Shown here one piece after another: positions 9,297 through 46,740 of a stretch of 64,000 nt of DNA. Source of the DNA: Mustelus asterias. Taxonomy: Eukaryota. The DNA lies in the NCBI RefSeq assembly GCF_964213995.1, contig NC_135828.1:30380001-30444000 (forward strand), written 5' to 3'. Both the position numbers and the translations under genes were made by a program. How positions within the stretch are numbered: position 1 is the first letter of the stretch; each line of letters starts with the position of its first letter. A model generated the notes under the pieces. The model saw only the letters and a list, made by a program, of their open reading frames with translations, was not told where the DNA came from and did not search any database.

Positions 9297-9900
9297 GTGG
9301 CACGGTGGCACAGCGGTTAGCACTGCTGCCTCTCAGCGCCAGGGATCCGGGTTCAATTCTGACCTCTATTGACTGTGCAGAGTCTGCACGTTCTCCCGTG
9401 TCTGCATGGGTTTCTCCGGGTGCTCCAGTTTCCTCCCACAGTCCAAAGATGTGCAAGTTAGAGAGATTAAGCATGTTAAATTGTCCCTTAGTGTCCCAAG
9501 ACATGTAGGTTAGCGGGGTTGGCCATGCTAAATTGCCCCTTTGTGTCCCAAGACATGTAGGTTAGCGGGGTTGGCCATGCTAAATTGCCCCTTAGTGTTC
9601 CACGATGTGTAATTTAGGTGAAATGGCCATGCTAAAATGCCCCTTAGTGTTCCACAATGTATAGGTTAGGGAGATTGGCCGTGCCCAATTGCCCCTTAAT
9701 GTCCCAAGATGTGTAGGTTAGGTGGATTGGCCATCATAAATTGCCCCTTAGTGTCCCAAGATATGCAGGTTAGGGGGATTAGTTGGGTAAATATGTGGGG
9801 TTATGGAGATATGGGCCTGGGTAAGATGCTCTTTCGGAGAGTTGGTGCAGTCTTGATGGGTGAAATGGCCTGCTTTTGTACTGTAGGGATTCTATGATGA
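9297..9900 (+). mobile_element. HE1-type SINE with about five 58-59-bp tandem units
   Basis: tRNA head at 9297; repeated TAGGTTAG..GG.TTGGCCATGCTAAATTGCCCCTTAGTGTCCC; GGGATTCTATGA tail. Confidence 0.85.
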
Positions 9901-13609: not shown

Positions 13610-13738
13610 GGGGCGGCATGGTAGCACAGTGGTTAGCACTGCTGCTTCACAGCTCCAGGGACCTGGGTTCGATTCCCGGCTTGGGTCACTGGCTGTGTGG
13701 AGTTTGCACGTTCTCCTCGTGTCTGCGTGGGTTTCCTC
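13610..13738 (+). mobile_element. HE1 SINE 5' half (split by the ERV; 3' half at 27114-27325)
   Basis: GGGTTTCCTC|CAGGTGCTCCGG is restored when the ERV is removed. Confidence 0.9.
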
Positions 13739-14386
13739 TGTAATGGGGAAAATACAAGGGGGGCACACTTTAAAATGGCAATACAAGAAAGCACACTCTA
13801 AAATGGCTGCCTGGCACACAAAGGGTTAACTGGGAAAGCCAAAAGAGCAGTCACAGGCTCCTGCTGTTCAGAAAAACCTAACAGACAAGCCACTTCAAAA
13901 GTACAGACAGTGACTCATAGCAAACAAACACCTCAGGAAGCCAAGCCAAGGGTCAAAACATCTTTTTAAGATAAGGAAACCCCAAAACAAAGAGCTTAGA
14001 TTAACGTTAAAGGAACGTGGGAAATATGAATGCGAGGGAACCGATTAGCACCTGAACGAGACGAAACTAGCCATTGATAGATACAGACATAAGGAGATGT
14101 ACCCATTCATAAAATGCTAAATGTCTATACCTGTTTGTACTTTTGTAAACATGAGGAAATGTACCCATTCATAAAATGTTAAATACTTGTATTCACTTAA
14201 ACAATGTGATAATGTTCGAATCACCGGTTTACCCATTGTGTAAAGGGTATAAAAATGAACCGCTCCTGACATACTATTGAGAGAAAGTTTGCTACAGACA
14301 TGTGCCTTGTCTCCACGGAGCTCCATTTAATAAATCGTATTTTCTGAATCTCGAAGTCTGACTACTAGTGGATTTTTCCCGCAACA
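13739..14386 (+). repeat. ERV 5' LTR (648 bp)
   Basis: TGTAA...CAACA; TATAAAAA about 14248; AATAAA 14329-14334; U3 duplication ATGTACCCATTCATAAAATG. Confidence 0.95.
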
Positions 14387-14388
14387 AA

Positions 14389-14407
14389 TGGCGTAGTCGG
14401 CTAGGAT
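14389..14407 (+). promoter_or_regulatory. ERV primer-binding site, tRNA-Ser
   Basis: TGGCGTAGTCGGC(T)AGGAT is the complement of the vertebrate tRNA-Ser 3' end (...ATCCTGCCGACTACGCCA) with one extra base. Confidence 0.85.
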
Positions 14408-14981
14408 CCTATTACTGGTGAGACCGATTGGCCACGGTCGCAACCGGGGTAGAGATCACGGAATCTGTGAGAGTCGGACTGGATCGGAAAATACGGTTTA
14501 TAAGGGGGAAATATTTGTACTGTGTATTTGTGATAGTATTTGTTATAGTGATAAATACTAACTGCTGATAGGAATAAATAACTGTGATTTGTGCTGATTG
14601 ACAAAAGGACAAGGTAGTGCCTGTCTCAAAACCTCTGCCTTAGACTGGCTATTAAGAGCAGAAATCTGCCACGTGAAGGTCAGGAATTGAAGTGAGTGAG
14701 AGACACCAAGGGCACTAAAGGATTGTGAAGCACAAAAGGGCAGAAGTCGGTTTAACATCACCCTCTGTAGTGGCGAACAGATGCACAGGTGCCAGCTGAT
14801 TGCATGAATGTATTGAAAAGTTGGGAACTGCACTGTCAATGTGGTGAAAAGCGGGGCGGAACAGGAGTTTGATCAACTCTGACCTAAACCGGAATCCGGT
14901 GGAGAAGCACATTGCCGAAGTGGTAATCGTGGAAGCCGTGAGTATAACTTAAAACCCTGTAACGGCAGTGAAACACGGTGT

Positions 14982-15130
14982 GAGAATAGCAATAGTGGCC
15001 GGGGGTAGTGAAGTCCCTATGGTAGTTAGCACACTTTGCTAAGAGTAGTAATAGTGGCCGGGGGTAGTGAAGTCCCTACGGTAGTTAGCACACTTTACTC
15101 AAGAATAATCGTGGCCGGGGTTAGTGAAAT
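14982..15130 (+). repeat. About 2.5 copies of a 57-59-bp tandem repeat in the ERV leader
   Basis: AATAGTGGCCGGGGGTAGTGAAGTCCCTA at 14991 and 15050; partial copy at 15107. Confidence 0.9.
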
Positions 15131-15137
15131 CTGCGAA

Positions 15138-16471
15138 ATGGCAGATAGTGAAGTTAAAAGGGGATCTGCAGGTTCCCTGATTGAAATCTACATGACAGAC
15201 AGGAAGGAGTTAATAAAGAGAATGCAAAAGGATGGCTGGGATACTTCTCAAACCTTAGAGCAGCAGAGAAAGTGGATAGATAAAGAAAAAAGCAGAACGA
15301 AGAAAATAGGAATAATGTTAACACATCAGTTAGCAGGTCTAATTGAACAAATAGTTTCCTCTACGAGGAAATGGAGGGAAGATAAAGAAAGAATTAGAGA
15401 ATTAGAATCCCGAGTGAGGGAACTGGAAAAACAAAATCAGGTTTTAGAAAGGCAAGGGGAGGAGAAACTGATCCTCTACCTTCTTATGAGTCCACCCAGC
15501 AAGGACCAACCGCACCCTCAGAAAAATGGGAACAGCTGGAACACAACTTAGCGCCCATAACTAGAGGGGGGACAGCAGCGCGACCAAAGGCAAATTATAA
15601 ACTTTTTACCCCAGGTGAGAGACAGCAGATAATGGCTTCCCTGGGCAAATTACAAACTAGAAGCGCGAACACTACATTCTGGGAAGAATTAGACACAATC
15701 TGGGTAGGACATCAATTACACCTAAGAGACGTACACCAGCTGGTCACGGCAGCCTGTCCAGCGGATAAGTGGAGGCAGGTAGCAGGGGGACCCGTTGCCC
15801 CTGTAGCACAGGATTATAATGGGGGACGGTGGACACTTGTAATTCCCCTAACAGCAGAGATAGATGCCCAACAGGCCCCCTTCTTACAGTTTAAAGAAGA
15901 AATTCAGAGGGTCTTAGGGAATGCTCCCACTAACTGGAGCAGAATTACCACCACAAAGCAGCTAAAAGGAGAAGGAGCCTCTGAGTACGGGGAACGATTG
16001 TTCCGAATATACCAAGAGTGCTCAGGACAAGGGGACCCAGGACGAGGAGATCGAGCATTCATCCAAGCTTTTAAGGATGGACTCTCTAGTGCCCACCAGA
16101 TCATCCTAAAAATGGGAGTGATCATGTCCCAAAATTACGATGAACTGGTGGAGTGGGCTAGCGGCATCCCAGCGGAAGAGAAACCCCAGGCAAGAGCAAG
16201 GTTAGAAAGAGTAGCAGCCTACAGTAACGGAAGTGAAACAAAACCCAAATTGATTTGCCACAATTGTGGGCAACAGGGGCACTTTGCGAGGGATTGCGGG
16301 ACTCCACGGAGAAAGAGCAAAACTGGGAACAGTGGTAAGCAGTGCAGCCACTGTAAAAGACACGGACATATGGAAGCAGTATGTTGGCATAAGCATGGGA
16401 GACCCCCAGCCCAATCCACGTCCCCAGCTGAACCCCAGGAACAAAAGGACACCCAGGGTCAGCAAGATTGA
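15138..16471 (+). pseudogene. gag: ERV gag, one frameshift near 15460
   Basis: ATG 15138; coiled coil; PTAP at 15506-15517 in the downstream frame; MHR-like QLKGEGASEYGERL; two CCHC knuckles CHNCGQQGHFARDC and CSHCKRHGHMEAVC. Confidence 0.85.
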
Positions 16472-19400
16472 CGGTCTGCAGCCCCCGTTCACAAGGGTAA
16501 AAAGGAGGGAAGGATTTATGTGTCAGCACTGGTAGGGGGCAGACAATGCGAGATGCTAGTGGACACAGGGGCATCCATATCCGTTACCGACCTACCCTTA
16601 CCCACTACAAATAAAATGATTTATCTGACCGGGATAGGAGGGAACAAAACTCCCGCCTACCTGAGCGAGACCACGTTAGTAGAAATAAATAATCTATATA
16701 TCTCAATGAAGTTCTATGTGTGCAGAAATAACGAGGGAACCATAATGGGGAACGATTTAATGAAAGAATATGAGATCTTGATAGATTGTGGGAAGGGAGA
16801 ATTAATTTGGCCAAGACAGGACGGTCGAAAAATTAGAATAGGGAAACTCACAAGTCACCTCGAGACCATTAAGGTGGCCACAGACACCGCCAGAAAATGG
16901 GAGTTAGAGACAGGAGGGTTTGGAGCCATTTGTGCTTCTGTTCCCGGAGTATGGGCTGAAACAAAGTTAGATACCGGTTTAACCGGGACCAGAGCATAAG
17001 CCACACCGGCAGTACCCAATTAAACCAGAAGCAGAGAAAGCTGTAGTAGAAATTGTGAAAGGGTTAGTGGTAAAGGGGATCCTGAGAGAAGCCACGAGCA
17101 CCACTAACTCCCCAACATAGCCAGTGAGTAAACCTGACGGGAGCTATAGGCTCACGATAGATTACACTGGACTTAATAAAGTCACGTCCAAGCTGCACCC
17201 CATTGTAGCAAGCCCTTCGACAATCCTGAATGGACTGTCACAGGAGCATAAAATATTTACAGTACTGGACATAGCTAATGGATTCTGGTCCTTACCCTTG
17301 GATCCTGAATCCCAAGACAAATTTGCATTTACAGTAGGGGACAAGCAGTATACCTGGACCTGTTTATACCATGGCATGAATTCTCTGCCCACTGAGGTGG
17401 TGGAGGCTACCTCGCTGAATATGTTTAAAGCGCGGATGGATGGATTCCTGATCGGTAAGGGAATTAAGGGTTATGGGGATCAGGCGGGTAAGTGGTACTG
17501 ATCCACGTCAGATCAGCCATGATCTTATTGAATGGCGGGGCAGGCTCGAGGGGCTAGATGGCCTACTCCTGCTCCTATTTTTTATGTTCTTATGTTTACC
17601 ACAGGGATTCCACAACAGCCCCCCTATATTCCATCGAGTGATGAGTGACATCCTAAATAGGGTAGAACTGCCAGAGGGTAACACGACCTTACAATATGTA
17701 GACGACATCCTAATAGCTTCAGAGTCCAAGTCAGGACATCAAGAAGCCCTATACTTGGTACTGAATGAATTAAAAGCCGCAGGATTAAAGGTCAGCCCCA
17801 AAAAGGCGCAGATCGGGAAGTCACAGGTCCTATACCTAGGGCACCTTATATCCCAAGGACTTAAAGAAATGCCGGCGGACAGGAAAGAGGAAATACAACA
17901 GATGCCGCGGCCGGTTAATATAAGAGGGGTTAGAAAGGTGCTAGGACTATTCAACTACAGTCGGAGTTTCGTCCCAGGGTTCACAAAACTCGCAGAACCC
18001 ATACAAAGACTCGTTAAAGGGGGGAAGCCAGCTTTAGACCCCGTAGAGTGGGGACCCGAGCAAGACGAAGCTTACACTAAATTAAAAACAGAACTAATAT
18101 CAGCCCCCAGACTAGGCTTACCCGATCTTAACAAAGACTTCCACATTTATTGTAATAATGAGGAAGGGTTCTATTCCGCAATAGTGACACAGGACCATGG
18201 CAACAGAAGGAGACCCATAGGGTATTATTCCACCGCAGAGGGGCCAGTAGTCACTGGACTGCCAAGGTGCATAGCCGCCTTGGATTGCGCCGCATGGGCT
18301 GTAAAGGTTAGCGAGCCAGTAATCATGACAGGGAATATAATCCTCCACACCAAACACACCTTGGTGGAAATGTTGAACACAGGAAAACTAAAGTCAGTCT
18401 CCAACATGAGAAGGGCTAAATGGGAAGCTGTCCTCCTACCTCCCAGCAAGTCCGTAACAATAATAAGGGATACGGGAAATAACCCAGCAGAAGGAATCTT
18501 AGATGGAGGAGAACCCCACAATTGTGGGGATGTGGATGCAGGAGAAGGAGAAGGAAGGATAAAGGACATGCCCCTGGTAACAGCGGAAGAGACCCTCTTT
18601 GTGGATGGGTCACGCAAATATGTGGAAGGATCACCCCGGACAGGATGGGCAGTCGTAAATAGTAAACTAGAAACAGTAAGGTCAGGAAGAATTGACGGAA
18701 GCTTGTCCGCACAAGTGGCAGAACTGGTGGCACTCACCCAGGCACTTGAGTTATCCGAGGGTAAGGCGGTAAACATTTATTCAGACAGTCGCTATGCCTT
18801 CGGAGTCATACATGATTATATGACAGCTTGGGGAAGGAGAGGGTTCATAACCACAGGGGGAACCCCTATCAAGCACCAGCAGAGAATTGAGGCATTGTTG
18901 AGAGCTAGCGAGAGACCTAGAGAAGCCGCAGTAATAAAAATTAAAGCGCACCAGAAGGAGCCCGGAAGAGATAGCCCAGACTGGTTAAATTTCAAAGGGA
19001 ACCAAGCCGCAGATAGGGCAGCACAGATAGCCCTAGAGCAGGAAATGATTGATGAATTGCCAATAGCAACAATAGAACCAACAGAAGCCGAAGTAGACAT
19101 TCAGGGTTTACATGAGGATACTCCAAAGGAAGAAAAGGAGAAGTGGGAAGCTCAGGGAACAGTCAAGGGGACAGATAACATTTGGAGACGAGAAGATAAG
19201 GTAATAGCACCAGAGTGCATACAAAACACCCTATTGGGATTACATCATGGACTCTCACATGTGGGTAGAGAGGCCATGATCACTAATATCGGAAAGGAGT
19301 GGTGGTGGAAGGGAATGGGAAAGGATATTGCCCGACACTGTCACCGATGCGTGACGTGCGCGCAACACAACCCTGGTAGACCCATAAAAATTAAAATGGG

Positions 19401-20235
19401 ACACCAGCCGAGACCCAAGGGACCCTGGGAACATCTACAACTGGATTTTACAGGACCACAGTCCCATGGCAAAACTTACTGTCTGGTCATCATAGACCAG
19501 TTCACCAGGTGGGTGGAAGGGTTCCCAACTTCAAACTGCACTGCTACCACAGTGGCCAGGATATTGGCAGAGGAGGTAATCCCAAGATGGGGGGTACCCC
19601 TACAAATTGATTCGGACCAAGGAACGCACTTCACTGGAAAGGTGATAAAAACAGTATGTCAATTAATGGGGATGAAACAAAAATTTCACATCCCCTACCA
19701 CCCGCAGAGCTCTGGAATGGTGGAGCGTATGAACAGAACACTAAAAAATGCACTTGCCAAGGCCATGCAGACATCAGGGAGAAGGTGGACAGAGGTATTG
19801 CCCACCATACTAATGAAATTAAGGGCGACCACAAACCGGACAACAGGATTAACCCCTTATGAACTAATGACAGGACGGGCGATGCAGTTACCAGAAAGCA
19901 TCATAACAGGTGGGACCGATGTCGGTCCACTAAAAGATAAAATCAAAAGATACATTCTGGATCTGAGCACCCAGCTAAAAGGGATGCGCAAATTGGTAAG
20001 AGATAATCAGGAGATAAAAGATGCACAGAGAGAGCTGGAAATGCTCCCTGACATCCCAACAGTGGGAAGTCGCATCCTAGTGAAAACACTACCCGACAAA
20101 CCAGGGTTTGCACTAAAGTGGAATGAGCCATATGAGATCATAATTAGTGGGGATACCTGTGCCTGTATAGACATAAGAGGGAAAGGTGTCTGGAAGCACT
20201 GGACTCAGCTGAAATTATACAAAGGAGATAAGTAG
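16472..20235 (+). pseudogene. pol: ERV pro-pol (PR, RT, RNase H, IN); frameshift near 16985, TAG at 17118, CR1 insert in RT
   Basis: LVDTGAS, LDIANGFW, LPQG, YVDD, LFVDGS, HHCC, QLDF/DSDQG/GMVER catalytic motifs; 17593-20235 is open. Confidence 0.92.
17367..17592 (+). mobile_element. Short CR1 3' fragment inserted in ERV RT
   Basis: NSLPTEVVEA motif and CR1 tail; TGTTTA duplicated at 17361-17366 and 17593-17598; removal restores WTCL|PQG. Confidence 0.9.
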
Positions 20236-20478
20236 CTAAATCGATGAACTAACAGAACTGCTTTCCTCAACACAGGCAAAGACTGCAAACAAGAGCCGGC
20301 GTGCGCGGGTTAATAAATAAAATAACTGTAAAAAATTGAATTGTAGTGTTAAGTTTTATAACTGTTGCGAATATCTATGTAATCGCGTATGTAATTGTAT
20401 TATTTTGCGTTGTGGCAACTGTAAGTTTGACTGGGCTGGAAGATAATTTGTTTTACAAAGCTCACATACATTTACATG

Positions 20479-23400
20479 TGTGGTGGACCTCAGTTGTGCC
20501 TTTGTCCTATATGGACCACCGTTGTGTGTGTTTGTCATACCTGGACACATCCCCTTCCAGTTTGGTTCCTCCCCTCAGCACCTAGTATAAAGGTGGCTGT
20601 CTCCTCCCCCTTGTTCAGTCCAGGTCGGTTAATTGTTGGGATCTGCTCCTGATTCTGTTGTGAATAAAAGCCTACACTTATATTGGCATATCGGTAGTCT
20701 TTCGCCTTATTGATAGCGCATCAATTTTATTCACAACAGTTACTAGTATGGAGCAGTTTCTAAAACCCGACAAGTTAGCATTAGACCCTCAAGAGGTTGG
20801 AGCCTCTGATAAATTTGATCATTGGTTGGACTGCTTCGAAGCATTCGTCAACACTGCTACGGCCATCGACACCGACGCTGCTAAACTCCACGTGCTCCGC
20901 GCCCGGGTAAGCGAAACTGTCTATGGAATCTTCCGGGACGCTGCTACTTACGCGGACGCTATCGAACTCCAAAAAGGGCAGTTCCGACAGAGCCCTAACG
21001 TGGTTTACGCCAGACACCTCCTAACTACCCGCAAACAGCAGCCAGGAGAATCGTGCGCCCAATTTCTGCGCACCCTGCGAGTCCTCGCCCGAGCATGCGA
21101 CTGTAAGGCTGTTTCAGCAGCTCAGAACACGGAGGATCTGATCCGCGACGCCTACGTTGCGGGCATTGAGTCTACATACATCCAGCAGCGTCTGCTCGAA
21201 CAAGATGACCTAGACCTCCGGAAAACGGCCACGATGGCTGAAACGTTAGAAGCAGCCTCCCATAATCTCGGGTCTTACCTTGGATCCCGTTCCACCGACG
21301 GCTCCACTGCGACGGCTGCTCCAGCAGGGCCCAAATGTTACTTTTGTGGCCTCCCTAAGCACCCTCGGCGTCACTGCCCGGCAAAGGACGCGATTTGCTC
21401 CGGATGTGGTAAGCTAGGCCACTTTGTTAAAGTCTGCAGAGCAAAGCCGCTTCTGAAGACTCGTGGAGCCATGTGTGCTCCGAGGGCGCGGCCATCTTTG
21501 ATGCAGGCGGCGGCTGCGCGCGAATCGCCATCTTGGATGCGGTCACCGGAAGTGCGGGAATCGCCATCTTGGATGCGGTCACCGGAAGTGCGGGAGTCGC
21601 CATCTTTGAGACTGGCATCAAGGCAAGCTGAGCAGGAAGCTTCATCCGTGACGTCATCAGACGGCGACGAAGATGGATTCTTCTTTAATTCAACAGTGGC
21701 ATCGATTTGCCTGGACCAGTCGCAGCCACATCAACTCTCCAAGTCCATAATGGAGATCAAGGGAAATGGTTATGCAGAAAACTGCCTGTTTGACTGTGGG
21801 AGCACGGAAAGTTTTATACACCCTCGCACAGTGCGTCAATATGCCCTTCCCGTGCGACCCTGGAGCCAGACCATCACCATGGCCTCGAATTCTCACTCAG
21901 TGGAGGTCCTCGGGTGCTGCTTGGTGACGCTGACGGTACAGGGCACAGTCTACGAGCGTTTTCGGCTCCTCGTGCTGCCGCGACTCTGCGCAGCTGTACT
22001 GCTCGGGTTAGATTTCCTCAGCCATCATAGAAGCGTCATCCTGCAGTACGATGGCCCTTATCCCCCGCTCTCCGTCTGCAAGGCGCCATCACGGCAGCGC
22101 CCCTCACGCACCACCTGCAGTCTCTCGACCCTCAAGATCACCCCCCCCCCGTTATTTGATAACCTCACCCCGGATTGTAGGCCTATAGCCACCAAGAGTA
22201 GGCGCTATAGTGCGGATGACCGGGCCTTCATTCGGTCCGAGGTACAACGTTTGCTCCAGGAAGGGATTATCCAGGCCAGCACCAGCCCCTGGAGGGCGCA
22301 AGTGGTCGTAGTTAAATCGGGGGAGAAACACCGCATGGTGATTGACTACAGCCAGACCATAAACAGGTATACCCAACTAGATGCATATCCTCTTCCCCGT
22401 ATCGCGGACATAGTCAACCACATCGCGCACTATAGGGTTTTTTCAACGATCGATTTGAAATCGGCTTACCACCAGCTCCCTATCCGCTCGGAGGATCGCC
22501 CATACACTGCCTTTGAGGCGGATGGCCGCCTCTACCAGTTCCTCCGAGTCCCCTTTGGTGTCACCAATGGGGTCTCAGTCTTCCAACGGGCCATGGATCA
22601 AATGGTGGACCAGCACGGACTACGGGCCACTTTCCCGTATCTGGATAATGTCACCGTCTGCGGCCATGACCTGCAGGACCATGATGCCAACCTACAAAAA
22701 TTCCTTCGTACGGCCACTCTCCTGAACCTCACATACAATGAGGCGAAGTGTGTTTTCCGGACACGCCGCCTCGCCATCCTTGGGTACGTGATAGAAAATG
22801 GTGTCCTTGGCCCCGACCCAGCCCGTATGCGTCCCCTTATGCAGCTTCCCCTCCCTACTACCCTCAAAGCACTGAGGAGATGCCTGGGCTTCTTCTCCTA
22901 TTATGCCCAGTGGGTTCCCCGTTACGCAGATAAAGCCCGTCCGCTCCTAAAATCGACCTCTTTTCCCCTGGCGGAGGAGGCCTGTCGGGCCTTCGATGAC
23001 ATCAAAGCGGACATCGCGAAGGCCGCGATGCACGCTGTGGACGAATCCATCCCATTCCAAGTGGAAAGTGATGCGTCTGACTTTGCCCTAGCTGCCACCC
23101 TTAACCAGAGGGGCCGTCCGGTGGCCTTCTTTTCCCGGACCTTACAAGGCCCTGAGATTCGACACTCCTCGGTCGAGAAGGAGGCCCAGGCCATCGTGGA
23201 AGCCGTCCGGCACTGGCGCCATTATCTCGCGGGCCAACGATTCACCTTAATTACGGACCAGCGGTCAGTTGCCTTCCTGTTTAACACCAGGCAAAAGGGC
23301 AAGATTAAGAATGACAAGATCTTGCGGTGGAGGATTGAGCTCTCCACCTACAGATATAACATCATGTACCGGCCTGGGAAGCTCAATGAGCCCCCAGACG

Positions 23401-25008
23401 CCCTGTCCCGTGGATCATGTGCCAGTGCCCAACTAGACCAGCTACAGTCCCTCCATAACGACCTCTGTCACCCGGGTGTCACCAGATTTTTCCATTTTGT
23501 CAAGTCCCGTAACCTGCCCTTCTCCCTTGAGGAAGTCCGGATGATTACCAGGCAATGCAGGGTCTGCGCTGAGTGCAAACCGCAGTTCAACCGGCCAGGT
23601 AGGGCGCACCTTGTAAAGGCCACTCGCGCGTTCGAGCGCCTTAGCGTTGATTTTAAAGGCCCCCTCCCCTCCTCTAACCGCAATGTTTATTTCCTGAATA
23701 TCATTGACGAATACTCACGTTTCCCTTTTGCCTTCCCCTGCTCGGACATGACCACGGCTACAGTGATTCGGACCCTGAACAAGCTCTTCACCCTGTTCGG
23801 CTTCCCAGCCTATATTCATAGCGACCGTGGGTCCTCTTTCATGAGTGACGAGCTGAGGCAGTACCTGCTCGCCAAAGGCGTTGCCTCCAGCCGCACCACT
23901 AGCTATAACCCCAGGGTCAATGGTCAAGTAGAGCGGGAGAACGCAACCGTCTGGAAGGCCGTTCTATTAGCGTTACGGTCTAGGGGCCTTCCAGTCAGCC
24001 GTTGGCAAGACGTCCTTCCGGACGCATTACATTCCATTAGGTCACTCTTGTGCACAGCGACCAATACGACCCCTCACGAGCGGATGTTTTCATTTCCCAG
24101 GAAGTCCTCCTCGGGTACTTCGCTCCCAGATTGGCTGATGTCCCCGGGACCCGTCCTGCTTCGGAAGCATGTCCGGACCCATAAGGCAGATCCCTTGGTC
24201 GAGGAAGTCCAATTGCTCCATGCTAATCCCCAATATACTTATGTAGTGTACCCTGATGGGCGGTAGGACACGGTTTCTGTCCGTGACTTGGCACCCGCGG
24301 GTGCCCCGGAGGTCACCACGTCCTTCCGCCCCACGGTCCCTGGTGTCGTCCATTCGGAGACTGCTACGCCTCTTCCTCCCTCAGTCCCTGTCCCCAATGT
24401 AGTGTGCCCAGAGCCTGTTGCAGCCCCCCACCCCCCAGCTCCGGTTCCCACTGTTCCCCATACGCCACCAGGGCCACTGCTCATTCCTCTCGCCCCTATG
24501 TACAGCTCGCTTGAGTCGCCGGAGCCGTCGCCACGCAGTACCCGACGACTGGACGGGACGACGGATCGGTCCGCTTCACACCACCCAGCGCCTTCTCTCG
24601 ACGCTCACTGTACGGAGCCTGGGCCGACATCGCTCCCTGCTCGGACGACTCTGCGACCTGCACTACGACGATCGCGACGACGGATCAAGCCACCGGTTCG
24701 TCTGGACTTGTGATATTGTTTCCGCTTCACCCCCGTGTTGTTTTTTTAAAAGGAAGGGGTGAATGTGGTGGACCTCAGTTGTGCCTTTGTCCTATATGGA
24801 CCACCGTTGTGTGTGTTTGTCATACCTGGACACATCCCCTTCCAGTTTGGTTCCTCCCCTCAGCACCTAGTATAAAGGTGGCTGTCTCCTCCCCCTTGTT
24901 CAGTCCAGGTCGGTTAATTGTTGGGATCTGCTCCTGATTCTGTTGTGAATAAAAGCCTACACTTATATTGGCATATCGGTAGTCTTTCGCCTTATTGATA
25001 GCGCATCA
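20479..25008 (+). mobile_element. Ty3/Gypsy LTR retrotransposon nested in ERV env
   Basis: 245-bp LTRs (20479-20723, 24764-25008), identical by eye; 5-bp TSD ACATG (20474-20478/25009-25013); PPT AAAAGGAAGGGGTG at 24748. Confidence 0.95.
20748..24713 (+). CDS. Gypsy gag-pol polyprotein (single frame, one in-frame TAG at 24264-24266)
   Basis: Two CCHC knuckles, LFDCGS protease, IDLKSAYHQ/PFG/YLDN RT, DASD RNase H, HHCC+DDE integrase in PR-RT-RH-IN order; ORF 24288-24713 is in the same frame. Confidence 0.9.
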
Positions 25009-26448
25009 ACATGGGAATCGGACTGTATGTTACCCGTTAACACAATCTGTAGAAGCCCTATTTGTAGCCACCCCTGGGTGGACCCCTCATGACTTATATA
25101 CTGTAGATACATCAGAGACACCCTGCAAGGGACAAATTGGCAAATATAAAAGAGGTTTACAGGGGAGATGTGTGGGACTTGTAAACCCCACAAATCCTAC
25201 ATGCAAGGGCTCCCAAAAGGAGGGAGGAAAAGCTTGCCCAGAGACTGCAAGCTATCCGCTTTGTTTCACGGGGCAGGGATGGGGATGTGCCTATGCCTTA
25301 GTCCCTAAGAATGATTCTTGTGTACAGACACAGTGTGTCCGTCAACATTGTCAGATTAACAAGGGACAGATTACTTGTATTTGTGACGAATGGAAATGTT
25401 TAAATATAACCGCGGGAAGACAGCTTATTTGTGGACAGTGTAATGGAACTCACGTAAGCTCAGCCAAATGGACATACCCCTTTGATACTTACCAGGTGGT
25501 GGGATCAAACGGGAAGCCAAATAAACTGAACAATTGGCAGTATGAGCAAACTCATAATCAGGACACTAAATGTTACCGGTCTAAGAAGGGGTATGTATTC
25601 CTCTTCAATGGTACCTACATGACAGAAACACCAAACCTCCCAGACCGTTTTGCGGTAGGAACAATCGGGTCACTGACTGTTCCATGCCCTCAGAAGGGGT
25701 ACATTCGGAGGAGAATAGTAACCCGGGCTATTAGCAGGGAATTCTGCGCTGACTGGGAAGCCCCGGGTACACTAGGATCCTCACTGGGGTATGGGTTCCT
25801 CGGAGCGTATCTCTTGGAGGGTCAGCCGGGGTAATTGGAGCAAAGAATAGAAACCATATTGTTTGTGGGCTAACAATCCTGGGAAACAGCACTTCAAAAG
25901 CATTGGAGGCTGTCAACCAAGAAATGGCTGAATTAAGATTGTATGCTCAGCAGACATGATACGCAGTGGACTACCAGTTAGCACAACAAGGGGGAGTATG
26001 TGCAATCATAGGCAACAAATGCATAACCCATGTCACAGATGAGTCTTACAATATTACACAGGTCATCAATGACATCAGGAAACAACTTGATAACTTTAGA
26101 CAGGGACCCAGGAGAGGAAGTAGTTGGCTGGCATGGCTGGTGGGATAATCCTGGGAATCGTACCTGTTACATGGATTGGTCATACTCATTGTCATTATAA
26201 TTGTCTGTTGTCTGACTGTGGGATGTCTTAAAGTCTGTTTTAAGATAATGTTGACAAGAATTGTGTCAGGAGCCAGTGTGTACATCGAAGAAGAGCCCCT
26301 AATGAAGATCCCCGAAGACGTCAGAAGAAATGAAGATACTGGAAGAAATAAAGACATCAAAAGAAGCAAAGAAGGAGAGAAGAACGAAGACCTGTATATG
26401 TGAATGTATGATTGTTGGTCTGAGGATTGTCCAAGCTATAATCCGACC

Positions 26449-26460
26449 AAAAGGAGGGAC
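26449..26460 (+). promoter_or_regulatory. ERV polypurine tract
   Basis: AAAAGGAGGGAC immediately before the 3' LTR. Confidence 0.85.
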
Positions 26461-27109
26461 TGTAAAGGGGAAAATACAAGGGGGGGCACACTTTAAAATG
26501 GCAATATAAGAAAGCACACTCTAAAATGGCTGCCTGGCACACAAAGGGTTAACTGGGAAAGCCAAAAGAGCAGTCACAGGCTCCTGCTGTTCAGAAAAAC
26601 CTAACAGACAAGCCACTTCAAAAGTACAGACAGTGACTCATAGCAAACAAACACCTCAGGAAGCCAAGCCAAGGGTCAAAACATCTTTTTAAGATAAGGA
26701 AACCCCAAAACAAAGAGCTTAGATTAACGTTAAAGGAACGTGGGAAATATGAATGCGAGGGAACCGATTAGCACCTGAATGAGACGAAACTAGCCATTGA
26801 TAGATACAGACATAAGGAGATGTACCCATTCATAAAATGCTAAATGTCTATACCTGTTTGTACTTTTGTAAACATGAGGAAATGTACCCATTCATAAAAT
26901 GTTAAATACTTGTATTCACTTAAACAATGTGATAATGTTCGAATCACCGGTTTACCCATTGTGTAAAGGGTATAAAAATGAACCGCTCCCGACATACTAT
27001 TGAGAGAAGGTTTGCTACAGACATGTGCCTTGTCTCCACGGAGCTCCATTTAATAAATTGTATTTTCTGAATCTCGAAGTCTGACTACTAGTGGATTTTT
27101 CCCACAACA
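26461..27109 (+). repeat. ERV 3' LTR (649 bp)
   Basis: About 7 substitutions and 1 indel relative to the 5' LTR, counted by eye. Confidence 0.95.
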
Positions 27110-27113
27110 CCTC

Positions 27114-36160: not shown

Positions 36161-36496
36161 GGGCGGCACAGTAGCACAGTGGTTAGCACTGCTGCTTCAC
36201 AGCTCCAGGGACCTGGGTTCGATTCCCGGCTTGGGTCACTGTCTGTGTGGAGTTTGCACATTCTCCTCGTGCCTGCGTGGGTTTCCTCCCACAGTCCAAA
36301 GATGTGCGGGTTAGGTTGATTGGCCATGCTAAAATTGCCCCTTAATGTCCTGGGATGCATAGATTAGAGGAATTAGCGGGTAAATATGTAGGGATATGGG
36401 GGTAGGGCCTGGGTGGGATTGTGGTCGGTGCAGACTCGATGGGCCGAATGGCCTCTTTCTGTACTGTAGGGTTTCTATGATTTCTATGATTTCTAT
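36161..36496 (+). mobile_element. HE1 SINE
   Basis: Full head and (TTTCTATGA)n tail. Confidence 0.9.
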
Positions 36497-38152
36497 ACAT
36501 CTTTGGACACGGAGGGGCAATTTAGCAAGTCCAATCCAACTAATCTGCATATCTTTAGACACGGAGGGTCAAGTTACCATATCCAATCCACATGACCTGC
36601 ACATCTTTGGGCACCACGGGGCAATTAATCATGGCCAATCCATCTAAACTGCAGATCCTTGAGCAGTAAGTGACAATGTAAAATGACCAATCCAATTGGT
36701 CAGTATTTGGAATACTGCGTCCAGTTCTGGTCGCCACACTACCAGAAGGACGTGGAGGCTTTGGAGAGAGTACAGAGGAGGTTTACCAGGATGTTGCCTG
36801 GTATGGAGGGGCTTGGTTATGAGGAGAGATTGGGGAAACTGGGGTTGTTCTCCTTGGAAAGATGGAGGATGAGGGGAGACTTAATAGAGGTGTATAAAAT
36901 TATGAAAGGCATAGATAGGGTGAACGGTGGGAAGCTTTTCCCCGGGTCGGTGGTGACGTTCACGAGGGGTCATAGGTTCAAGGTGAAGGGGGGGAGGTTT
37001 AACACAGATATCAGAAGGACATATTTTACACAGAGGGTCGTGGGGGCCTGGAATGTGTTGCCGGGCAAGGTGGTGGAGGCGGACACACGGGGAACGTTTA
37101 AGACTTATCTAGACAGCTATATGAACGGAGTGGGAATGGAGGGATACAAAAGAGTGGTCTAGTTTGGACCAGGGAGCGGCGCGGGCTAATTGTTCTTTGT
37201 TTCTCGTTTCAAGGCTTCATTCTATGATCATCTTGCTGGTGCCAGTACAGAGCGAGACTTCGGATAGTTGGGAACCTGTCTCGGGGGCAGGGAATTCAGA
37301 TGGTGTTCGTAAAGCAGAAGTGGAAATGAATAGGGTTGGGAAGCATTTTCTGATCAGGGCCAGTGTGATCTCCTGGACTCGTTTCGATCGCCTCAGGGGG
37401 TCGGAGAGGAATTTCCCAGATTTTTTTTTCCCCCATATTGGCCCTGGGGTTTTCACTCTGGGTTTTCGCCTCTCCCTGGAGATCACATGGTCTGGAATGG
37501 GGGGGTGGGGGTGAGTTAATAGGTTGTGATGAACAAAGCATCGTAGCTGTGAGGGACAGCTCGGTGGATAGGATATTAGGATGTAGATAGGCTGGAAAAT
37601 TGGGCGGGGATCCTGGATTCAGGATTCAATCCTGGACCGGCGAGCGGCGCGGGCTTGGAGGGCCGAAGGGCCTGTTCCTGTGCTGTATTGTTCTTTGTTC
37701 TTGTTCAATTAATCTACACATCTTTTGACACGAAGAGGCAATTTACCATGGCCAATATGCCTAACCCACAAATCTTTGGACACTAAGGGGCAGTTTAGCA
37801 TAATCAATCCAATTAACCTATAGATCTTTGGACGGTAAGGAGCAATTTAGCATGACCAATCCATCTAACCTGCACACCTTTGGGCACGAAGGGGCAATTT
37901 ACCTTTCATATCCACCTAACTTGTTCATCCTAACTTGTACATCGTTCGACACTAAGAGACAAGTTAGCATCGCTTAATCCAGCTAACCTGCACATCTTTG
38001 GACACGAAAGGACAATTTAGCTTGGCCAATCCACCTAACCTGCAAATGTTTGGACAGTAAGGGGCAATTTACACTATCCAATACACCTAACCTACATATT
38101 GTTGGACAATATAGAGAAATTTAGCATGGCTAATCGATCTGACCTACATATC
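36497..38152 (-). repeat. Expanded minus-strand array of HE1 internal ~58-bp units, interrupted by a CR1
   Basis: More than 10 degenerate ACATCTTTGGACAC..AGGGGCAATTTAGCATGGCCAATCCA.CTAAC units at 36497-36698 and 37707-38152. Confidence 0.75.
36699..37705 (+). mobile_element. CR1 3' portion with long 3' UTR
   Basis: LEYCVQFWSPHYQKD...FTQRVVGAWN; tail TGCTGTATTGTTCTTTGTTCTT. Confidence 0.9.
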
Positions 38153-38164
38153 TTATTCCTCGAA

Positions 38165-38980
38165 CTTTTTTTTCCCCAAAAAATATACTTCATTCGTAAA
38201 TCTGTGAGGACATGACAAACATTACAAAATGATCATCAGACAAATAGCAATAATATTCAGGGTCTTTACATACATCAGGTAAAATTCTGAAATGCTTCAA
38301 TACAGTAAAGGAAACGTGTCAGACATTTTACAATGGTCTTTAAAATGTTGTAAAGTTATTTTAAAAGTTGTCCACATAGAAAAGCTTGCACTCCGAGGTG
38401 TTTCAGTACAACTGACATACATGTAGTATTCACTGTATGCACTCAGTTGCTCCTTAGCCCGAGGGGGGTTCTGATCCCCTTGGTTCACTGTGGTTGAAAG
38501 GTTTTCGACAGTGACTTTCCCCATTGCGGCTCTGCGGCAGCTGCCTGAGCTTTAGTGCATCTCTCAGCACGTAGTCCTGGGCTTTGGAATGTGCCGGTCT
38601 GCAATAATTGGCCTAGGACAACTCCGTGCACTCGAAGACCAACAGGTTTCGGCCGACCAAAGAGCGTCTTTCACCGAGTTGATGATCTTCCTCCTGGGCG
38701 AACCATCATTTTCTACCCAAAAATATACCTTATTGATAAATTTGTGAGAACGTTACAAACATTCCAAAATGACCATCACATAAAAAGCAATAATGCTCAG
38801 GTTCTTAATATCCATCAAGTAACATGTTTCAATACAGTAATGGAAGCGTTTCAGATATTTTACAATGGTCTTAAATATGTTGCAAAGTTATTTTAAAGGC
38901 TGTCTACATTAAAAAGTTGCACTCCTTCTCAAGTTGCACTGCTTCAGTGCAGCTGAGAAACATGTATCTTATTCCGCTAA
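38165..38980 (-). mobile_element. Two tandem 3' ends of a Tx1/L1-like LINE
   Basis: Minus strand 38520-38690 reads KIINSVKDALW..RNLLVF...QDYVLRDAL; the AT-rich 3' UTR occurs twice (38173-38394, 38713-38925). Confidence 0.65.
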
Positions 38981-40480: not shown

Positions 40481-41259
40481 CAAGATTTAAAGGCAGCAAG
40501 ACTGCTGGGGTAAGGGGAAAGGCGGTAATATTGGGGTGGGCATCTGGTTTCTGAATTAATCGTCTCCCACATTTCCGATCAGCACACAGGACATAACATA
40601 TAAACATAGAAGTAAGAAGCTGGAGTAGGCGATTTGGCCCTTGAAGCCTGTTCCCGCCATTCATTATGATCATGGCTGATCATCAAATTCAATACCCTGA
40701 TTCCCTCTTCCCCCATAACTCTTGATCCCTTTCGCCCGAAGAGTTATATCTAATTCCTTCTTGAACTCACACAACAGTTTGTTCTTGTTTGCAGCTCGTT
40801 AAAGGAGCAGCACCATAGCCATTGTAGCACTCCCTCAGGACTGGCGCGAGTAATCAACTGCTCAATTATGTGTCCAAGTACCAGTTGCCGGGCTGAAACC
40901 ATCTATTTCAATCGTGAGATTCCTGCAAAACTGAGTCCAGCCTAAACAACTGACAGCGCGGCAATCGGATGAACACAAAACTATGTTTCTAAAGTTTCAC
41001 CATTCCAATTGCTTTTGCTGTTGATAAGTCAATACAAATCACACTTTAATCAGGCAGTACCGACCACATCACATGGACTGCACCTGTTCAGGAAGGCAGC
41101 TCACCACCACACTCACAAGGGCTGTTCGGTGTGGACAATTGATGTTGGCCTTAGCGGCGATGCAAACATCTAAGCAACGCATTAAGAGAATAAATCCACG
41201 ACCAATTCAATACCAAACTAATGAAATGTTGTTGCCGAAACTTCATAAATCTCTGATCA

Positions 41260-46151: not shown

Positions 46152-46740
46152 AGGGCGGAATGGTGGCACAATGGTTAGCATTGCTGCCTCACAGCGCCAA
46201 TGACCAGGGTTCAAATCCAACTTTGGGTGGCTGTCTGTGTGGACTATGCACGTTCTCCCCGTTGCCATGCTAAATTGACCCCTCGGGTCCAAACATATGT
46301 AGGTTTGATGGATTGACCATGCTAAATTATCATTTAGAGTCCAAAGATGTGTAGGTTAGGTGGTTTGGCCATGCTAAATTGTCCCATGGTGTCCACAGAT
46401 GTGCGGGTTAGGTTCATTAGCCATGATAACCTGCCCCTATTGTCCAAAGTTGTGGATTGGCCACATTAATGCATGGAATTACCTGGATAGGGTATGGGTA
46501 AGTTGCCCGAAGCAGAGGCAGAAATTGCTGAAACATGGAGAGAGGATAGAGCCAATGTTTTAATTCAGGATACCCCTGCTCTCTCTTCAGATGCTGTCAG
46601 GCCTGTTCCGATTTTCCAGCATTTTCTGTTTTTCTTTCCGATTCCAGCATCCGCAGTATTTTGCCTTTACGCTCTTTCGGAGAGTCTGTGCAGACCTGAT
46701 GGACCGAATGACCTCCTTCTGCCCTGTAGGGATTGTATGG
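46152..46740 (+). mobile_element. HE1-type SINE with tandem units, split by a short repeat at about 46505-46670
   Basis: Head at 46152; tail resumes at GCTCTTTCGGAGAGTC near 46671. Confidence 0.75.

Follow-up and report, generated by a model that had tools for sequence, protein, structure and literature searches.

The window, i.e., the entire 64,000-nt stretch of Mustelus asterias DNA analysed here, contains a provirus (13739–27109) bordered by a 4-bp target duplication (13735–13738 and 27110–27113) and located inside a SINE. The following features were recognised within it:

13739..14386, + strand: 5′ LTR (TG...CA), 98.8% identical to the 3′ LTR (7 mismatches, 1 gap)
14389..14407, + strand: primer-binding site, after the 5′ LTR
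15030..16471, + strand: gag, broken, in two overlapping frames (ORFs 15030–15551 and 15398–16471), with a CCHC zinc knuckle (zf-CCHC, E 3.8e-6)
16472..20235, + strand: pro-pol, class I (MLV-like), with RVP, RVT_1, RNase H and rve; broken by stops and by an insert in RT
20370..20478, + strand: env signal peptide and start of SU, matching the N-terminus of the intact relative P0003; split off by the nested element
20479..25008, + strand: nested Ty3/gypsy LTR retrotransposon in env, with 100% identical LTRs, a 5-bp target duplication and gag-PR-RT-RH-IN
25010..25711, + strand: env SU, Cys-rich, without a Pfam match; about 250 aa in the intact relative P0003
25712..25735, + strand: SU/TM junction lacking a canonical furin motif; compatible with R-X-aliphatic-Z (SKI-1/S1P) and with a P6/P1 basic pattern
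25745..25866, + strand: predicted internal fusion loop, Gly-rich and hydrophobic, bounded by a Cys on either side; contains the frame change near 25805–25810
25867..25998, + strand: HR1 with an N-glycan site and an ISD-like region; in-frame stop at 25957–25959
25999..26025, + strand: CX6C chain-reversal motif without the third Cys; Ile follows
26026..26403, + strand: HR2, Trp-rich membrane-proximal region, membrane anchor and cytoplasmic tail; in-frame stop at 26146–26148
26461..27109, + strand: 3′ LTR, with a polypurine tract just before it

Among solved structures, Pol was closest to the MLV reverse transcriptase (E 9e-81, with foamy Pol at 5e-21) and the proviral backbone was thus assigned to class I. 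On this class I Pol backbone, the primer-binding site is presumably of the tRNA-Ser type. The gag frame ends with a TGA that lies in the same frame as the protease and is directly followed by CGG (16469–16474), which we take to be a context for UGA read-through; the gag stop in MLV-type viruses is UAG. Just 5′ of gag, the end of the leader (14983–15131) carries a unit of about 59 bp twice in tandem (88% similarity across 92 bases). The short insert in RT (approximately 17370–17600) partially matches positions 1746–1827 and 40595–40681 of the window and looks, as we assume, like the 3′ end of a LINE. SINE tails with arrays of a 52-bp unit recur elsewhere in the window, at 9400–9850, 36490–38180 and 46200–46440.

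The env gene has been damaged by the Ty3/gypsy insertion, by the frame change near 25805–25810 and by two stops in the TM part, and no in-frame Met was found in 20373–20477 of its 5′ piece. The inserted Ty3/gypsy element (4.5 kb) has a long gag-pol frame with one TAG at 24264–24266 in the integrase region, and no obvious tRNA primer site was seen 3′ of its 5′ LTR; with its identical LTRs, it is very young. The provirus is young as well, as indicated by the near-identity of its LTRs. This copy is dead and defective and shows no sign of a function of its own. A co-opted host gene at the env locus was rejected in view of the several lesions, as was an endogenous element of filovirus (mononegavirus-encoded) origin, since the sequence is the env of a provirus.

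The TM subunit is read from two frames. The first one holds the R-I-V-T motif of the junction (25712–25723), the first loop Cys (25745–25747) and a hydrophobic stretch (25784–25804), and the second one holds the second loop Cys (25864–25866), an N-S-T glycan site (25885–25893), an ELR motif (from 25930), the CX6C motif with its Ile (25999–26025) and the membrane anchor (about 26176–26229). The original prediction had proposed a retroviral TM subunit at this place, with a frameshift near 25807 and an architecture resembling that of filovirus GP2. With frames and coordinates checked, each motif it listed was found where it had been placed, the TM reading holds, and the frame change was located near 25805–25810. 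The second TM stop (26146–26148) was absent from its list, and the stop at 25957–25959 is present too. The Ebola GP2 sequence that it quoted agrees with the PDB chain. Its assignment of the gene to a shark retroviral env was borne out by the position in the provirus and by the relatives, those with a source name being all from sharks or rays.

These relatives were collected by three word-index searches and one full profile search, and 28 natural relatives were compared by motif; three further SU-only matches entered the SU alignment alone. The 11 named relatives come from Rhincodon, Pristiophorus, Heterodontus, Leucoraja, Mobula and Scyliorhinus. One relative, P0003, is an intact Env of 497 aa that is identical to the window copy at 455 of 493 compared positions. 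Together with P0004, P0006, P0009 and P0011, it belongs to a set of apparently complete Env frames from several sharks and rays.

Results of the comparison showed that the predicted Cys-flanked internal hydrophobic loop is conserved across the family. The first loop Cys is kept in 21 of the 23 relatives that span its position, the second in 21 of 22, and both flanking cysteines in 18 of 21. The original prediction had named unconserved flanking cysteines as a finding that would overturn it, and on these counts it was not overturned. The two are 39–43 residues apart in the family vs. 44 in three filovirus GPs. In four members examined for hydropathy, the TM starts with a polar stretch, seen over the 15 residues that follow the junction (KD −0.1 to −1.1), and the hydropathy peak (KD 1.3–1.5) lies inside the loop, 16–20 residues after the first Cys. 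Where CX6CC would have its third Cys, all 21 relatives that reach this position carry Ile, Met, Val or Thr (7 others end before), while all three filovirus GPs and an endogenous retroviral (ERV) Env of cobra carry Cys. The lack of this cysteine, already pointed out in the original prediction, is thus a trait of the lineage; decay of a single copy was rejected on the same family-wide count. Near-complete TM ectodomains contain exactly four Cys (10 of 10 relatives).

In the SU, an N-terminal Cys (motif at 25025–25036) and a C-terminal Cys (motif at 25679–25690) are invariant among the 12 near-complete relatives (12/12). Half of these (6/12) have an odd number of SU cysteines, which largely follows one variable Cys (7/12). 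A single CXXC is complete in 7/12, and for this reason it was rejected as an isomerase motif. Four relatives (P0009, P0015, P0024, and P0161) have an extra N-terminal segment of up to about 150 aa ahead of the shared SU core; it contains Cys in P0015 and P0024, basic furin-like motifs follow it in several, and it is possibly a cleaved accessory domain. P0161, from Scyliorhinus, is annotated as an LDLRAD3 isoform that runs on into the family Env with SU joined to the TM end, and reflects either a chimera created by gene modelling or a genuine transcript that fuses host and viral sequence.

To compare the TM with solved structures, its downstream piece, with X at the stop, was used as a phmmer query against 177,635 distinct PDB sequences. 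The best filovirus glycoprotein was found at E 1.4e-13, followed by GP2 of CAS virus (4e-8) and syncytin-1 (8e-4); values for other retroviral TMs were 0.1–0.5, for the TM chains 4jf3 and 4jgs, named ‘envelope glycoprotein’, 0.1–0.2, and for the ASLV TM 0.7–0.8. Judged by these scores, the match of the TM to filovirus GP2 is beyond chance. The best Pfam family was Ebola-like HR1-HR2 (E 2.6e-5), at 24.4 bits and thus below the cut-off of 27. When a profile of the family TM was run against PDB, filovirus GP chains holding the core scored 55–79 bits, CAS virus GP2 47, syncytin-2 33–46, syncytin-1 30–35, ASLV 31 and MLV-like TMs 26–31; for the matching core, Ebola reached 55 bits vs. 30.9 for ASLV, 30.8 for MLV-like TMs and 32–33 for the syncytins. 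The best viral match among the PDB chains, to which this ranking applies, is thus a filovirus glycoprotein, and GP2 ranked ahead of the ASLV and gamma-type TMs in sequence and profile searches alike, in line with the filovirus kinship of the original prediction.

The likeness to filoviruses is less specific than this ranking suggests, because PDB holds few non-mammalian ERV Envs. For the shared core (residues 327–392 of P0003), we compared three filovirus GPs with the cobra Env, P0152, the sole named non-shark ERV Env that could be used, which has CX6CC, an HR1 glycan and a furin site but no loop Cys. The cobra Env scored 75 bits at 43% identity vs. 57–59 bits and 34–37% for the filoviruses. 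The registers of the glycan site, AL, ELR and GG-C, which had been cited as signs of GP2 likeness, are consequently not filovirus-specific, as an Env devoid of the loop Cys matches the core better. The profile search ranked 47 proteins from beyond the core family above the best filovirus GP (by table position only), of which 34 align only downstream of the loop-closing Cys; TM-only matches in this search are mostly unnamed, and about 120 of them, some possibly human ERV proteins, were left out. In the ESM Atlas, TLV_coat clusters (0.93–0.95) came ahead of a filovirus cluster (0.84) for the TM.

The loop interior showed no detectable similarity to filovirus loops, with 121–177 of 200 shuffles scoring as high. 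Conversely, the 14 residues around the loop-closing Cys are 37–49% identical to the filoviruses vs. 12% to the cobra Env, and two of the three filovirus segments beat all 200 shuffles (the third gave no score). By these alignments, this 14-residue stretch is the filovirus-particular part of the TM. The claim of a gapless register with GP2 therefore stands through HR2 from a point some 8 residues ahead of the loop-closing Cys, but fails for the loop interior, and the first Cys is not covered by it.

Structure prediction for the full-length P0003 gave a mean pLDDT of 49, with the whole TM ectodomain below 50. Searches with this low-confidence model were uninformative: BFVD was headed by the EAV-HP Env (E 1.5e-4) and the GP of Mengla type (E 3e-3), both at TM-scores of about 0.1, and in VIA only the anchor helix was matched. 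The low-confidence model of an SU-only relative (pLDDT 54) matched no known structure (best Z 2.7); a Bundibugyo GP1 chain ranked 28th, at the level of noise (Z 2.2, 62 residues, rmsd 4.5). We also built a tree from 24 TM ectodomains (20 of the family, 3 of filoviruses and 1 of cobra); being unrooted, with three groups and long branches meeting, it does not bear on sisterhood, and its one result is that members with furin-type junctions and members with S1P-type junctions are intermixed within a single subclade.

Set against known systems, the shark/ray family shares with filovirus GP2 (Ebola, Marburg and Mengla types) a Cys-bounded loop of nearly equal length, the N-x-N-x-x-x-C-x-L register, the HR1 glycan, an ISD-like region, CX6C, the gapless core and a Trp-rich membrane-proximal region. 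It differs in its retroviral context, in lacking the third Cys and hence the CX6CC that links GP2 to GP1, and in a loop interior that is unrelated in sequence and twice as Gly-rich. Moreover, the distance from the cleavage site to the first Cys is about 7 residues in the family vs. tens of residues in GP2, and no sequence likeness was detected between SU and GP1. The ASLV TM has by sequence the same architecture (the disulfide is predicted), but ASLV combines CX6CC with a covalent SU-TM link, whereas CX6CC occurs in 0 of 21 family members and the TM has no Cys to spare. The ASLV TM core is no closer to the family than are those of gammaretroviruses. The Pol of the present provirus was computed as class I, and that of ASLV is class II. 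For the SU, ESM Atlas placed the family near Avian_gp85 and TLV_coat clusters (0.92–0.93), a lead only; the Pfam Avian_gp85 family gave no match in 22 family members, and the low-confidence SU model did not bear the lead out either. Ordinary gamma-type TMs (MLV, syncytins) begin with an N-terminal hydrophobic fusion peptide and have CX6CC along with a conserved CXXC in SU, while the family TM has a polar N-terminus, no third Cys, and a CXXC that is complete in 7/12. The GP2 of CAS virus, a reptarenavirus, matched the core (E 4e-8, 47 bits), yet its solved construct aligns only after the loop region.

A relationship between filovirus spikes and ERVs of cartilaginous fish is already known. Nino Barreat and Katzourakis 2024 (PMC11521997; preprint 10.1101/2023.10.26.564176) found that retroviral elements in Chiloscyllium, Scyliorhinus, Amblyraja and Leucoraja encode ectodomains like those of filoviruses, and place these ectodomains as sister to the GP2 of ebola-, cueva-, marburg- and dianloviruses with a posterior of 0.83, so that the published support is moderate. 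In the same tree, the wider clade (posterior 0.89) also takes in the GP2 of reptarenaviruses, sister to tarsier ERVs and a separate capture, and other retroviral sequences fall outside it. Those elements resemble ours in that an Env ectodomain lies within an LTR retroviral element, in their best viral matches to filovirus GPs (E 1e-9 to 2e-17 among the rows listed, 1e-13 here) and in the genera Leucoraja and Scyliorhinus, which also occur among our named relatives; four short motifs had no match in part of the supplementary files. Of the shared lineage that the original prediction drew for filovirus, reptarenavirus and ASLV fusogens, the filovirus kinship thus stands as a published relationship, that with reptarenaviruses is indirect, and that with ASLV finds no support in the TM sequence.

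The main text of PMC11521997, as available, makes no mention of a fusion loop, fusion peptide, cysteine, disulfide or furin. A loop and glycan have been described for ASLV and filoviruses, and according to the same 2013 review (PMC3758190) birds were the only hosts in whose retroviral TMs a Cys-flanked peptide had been seen. Chen et al. (bioRxiv 2021.11.23.469661) report, in the portions available, CXnC variants, Envs in six cartilaginous fish and three novel predicted fusion peptides; their text on fish and amphibian Envs gives Cys-flanked loops only for alpharetroviruses, and on this text comparison the present family may be among their types. In the literature searched, which covers little of the subscription journals, we found no shark-Env loop, family-wide loss of the linking Cys or S1P-cut retroviral Env. 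By its motifs, the combination of a loop, no linking Cys and a non-furin junction fits no defined TM type.

We favour, with fair though not high confidence, the view that the locus holds the dead TM of a shark/ray Env family that is likely a filovirus-type class I fusogen with a predicted clamped loop and an SU likely free of a disulfide to TM. This reading builds on what was observed directly: the gene is the env of a class I provirus and belongs to the family, and its conserved cysteine pattern, gapless GP2 match and lesions were seen in the sequence. In an intact virus, cleavage of the precursor would fall 6–7 residues ahead of the first loop Cys, with furin as the protease in some members. 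The four ectodomain cysteines would then form two intrachain bonds, one closing the 39–43-residue loop and one the CX6C turn, with none left for the SU. Given this TM cysteine count, the SU would be held non-covalently and gamma-type disulfide exchange would not be needed. After receptor binding, probably in endosomal acid as for ASLV and filoviruses, the SU would be shed without such an exchange, HR1 would extend, the loop would insert, and HR2 would fold back to give a six-helix bundle. The scheme is modelled on ASLV and filovirus biology as described in the accessible parts of PMC3758190, PMC9967133 and bioRxiv 2023.10.07.561363. As filoviruses, ASLV and gammaretroviruses all keep CX6CC, its loss would be derived in the shark lineage, from which we infer that this lineage is a sister of the Env captured by amniote filoviruses and not its donor.

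How the precursor is cut in the subgroup of the window copy can be read in two ways. The canonical furin motif R-X-K/R-R is absent at the junction of the window copy. Among 21 relatives, four have a canonical furin site ending 6–7 residues before the first Cys, by which the TM start was fixed; 12 have R-X-aliphatic-Z ending 7 residues before it, two have Lys in place of the Arg and three have neither. The window junction fits R-X-aliphatic-Z, the motif of SKI-1/S1P substrates, and site C of SKI-1 itself is likewise followed by Arg-Ala (relevant passages of PMC8310232). The 14 non-furin junctions retain an aliphatic residue at P2 for S1P in all cases and Arg at P4 in 12, while positions upstream vary. 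Alternatively, the cut may fall after the last Arg, by a basic-site protease of the PC5/PACE4 type (P6 plus P1) or a trypsin-like one, the SKI-1/S1P match being incidental. The last Arg is kept in 12/14, at the alignment position that is the furin P1 in three relatives, and the P6/P1 basic pattern is seen in 10/14; sites basic at P1 and P6 are cut by PC5A, PACE4 or furin (same passages of PMC8310232). Against it speak the fully conserved P2, the conserved P4 next to variable upstream positions and the Arg-Ala that follows SKI-1 site C. We give the basic-site cut about an even chance; it concerns one step only and is compatible with the fusogen reading. SKI-1/S1P is our most likely single candidate for this subgroup, yet we put it forward as a lead, at somewhat under even chances, because the P6/P1 pattern fits too, the register was chosen after looking at the junctions, and the 14 sequences are related, so that their counts are not independent. 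If true, a switch between furin and SKI-1/S1P within one Env family would be new for retroviruses, within the literature searched.

The filovirus-like architecture could also have another origin, with the TM as one of many non-mammalian gamma-type TMs having an HR1 glycan and with the clamped loop having arisen separately, the closeness to GP2 then coming from conserved core residues and sparse sampling. The better core score of the cobra Env, the 34 of 47 higher-ranking matches that align only after the loop-closing Cys, the dissimilar loop interior and the lead of TLV_coat clusters over the filovirus cluster all agree with this, and XtERV-S has an internal fusion peptide and a glycan without cysteines (PMC8278194, text in part). 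We nevertheless regard a separate origin as rather unlikely, since a gapless alignment of the closing-Cys segment is obtained with filoviruses and not with the cobra Env, the loops are of near-equal length (39–43 vs. 44), and the published tree joins shark ERVs with filoviruses (PMC11521997, as available). An SU still bound covalently to TM through another Cys pair, e.g., the N-terminal SU Cys and a TM Cys, with one intrachain bond missing, appears improbable to us. The N-terminal SU Cys, which is the linking position in ASLV and Ebola (bioRxiv 2023.10.07.561363, accessible part), is kept in 12/12 and the SU Cys count is odd in 6/12; at the same time, the C-terminal SU Cys is equally invariant and could pair with the N-terminal one, the odd count is mostly due to one variable Cys (7/12), and TM always has four Cys.

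On the origin of the filovirus spike, the shark link has one moderately supported tree behind it. Under the favoured reading of a filovirus-type fusogen, the clamped loop and the closing-Cys register would be a discrete shared character that supports this link independently, and the Cys-clamped-loop TM architecture would extend beyond bird retroviruses, to which the 2013 review (PMC3758190) confined it. The loss of the third Cys would separate two traits that are joined in ASLV and filoviruses, and would mark the shark lineage as sister and not donor. A stronger proposal, which we consider speculative and unlikely to hold in full, is that sharks and rays have a distinct Env type to which, among retroviruses, the filovirus spike is most closely related as a sister, with the GP2 loop inherited from a common ancestor, no SU-TM disulfide and one branch using SKI-1/S1P. 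If true, activation by SKI-1/S1P, like that of arenavirus glycoproteins, would be unprecedented among retroviral Envs, the fusogen captured by filoviruses would already have had its loop, and the intact shark copies would be its nearest testable model.
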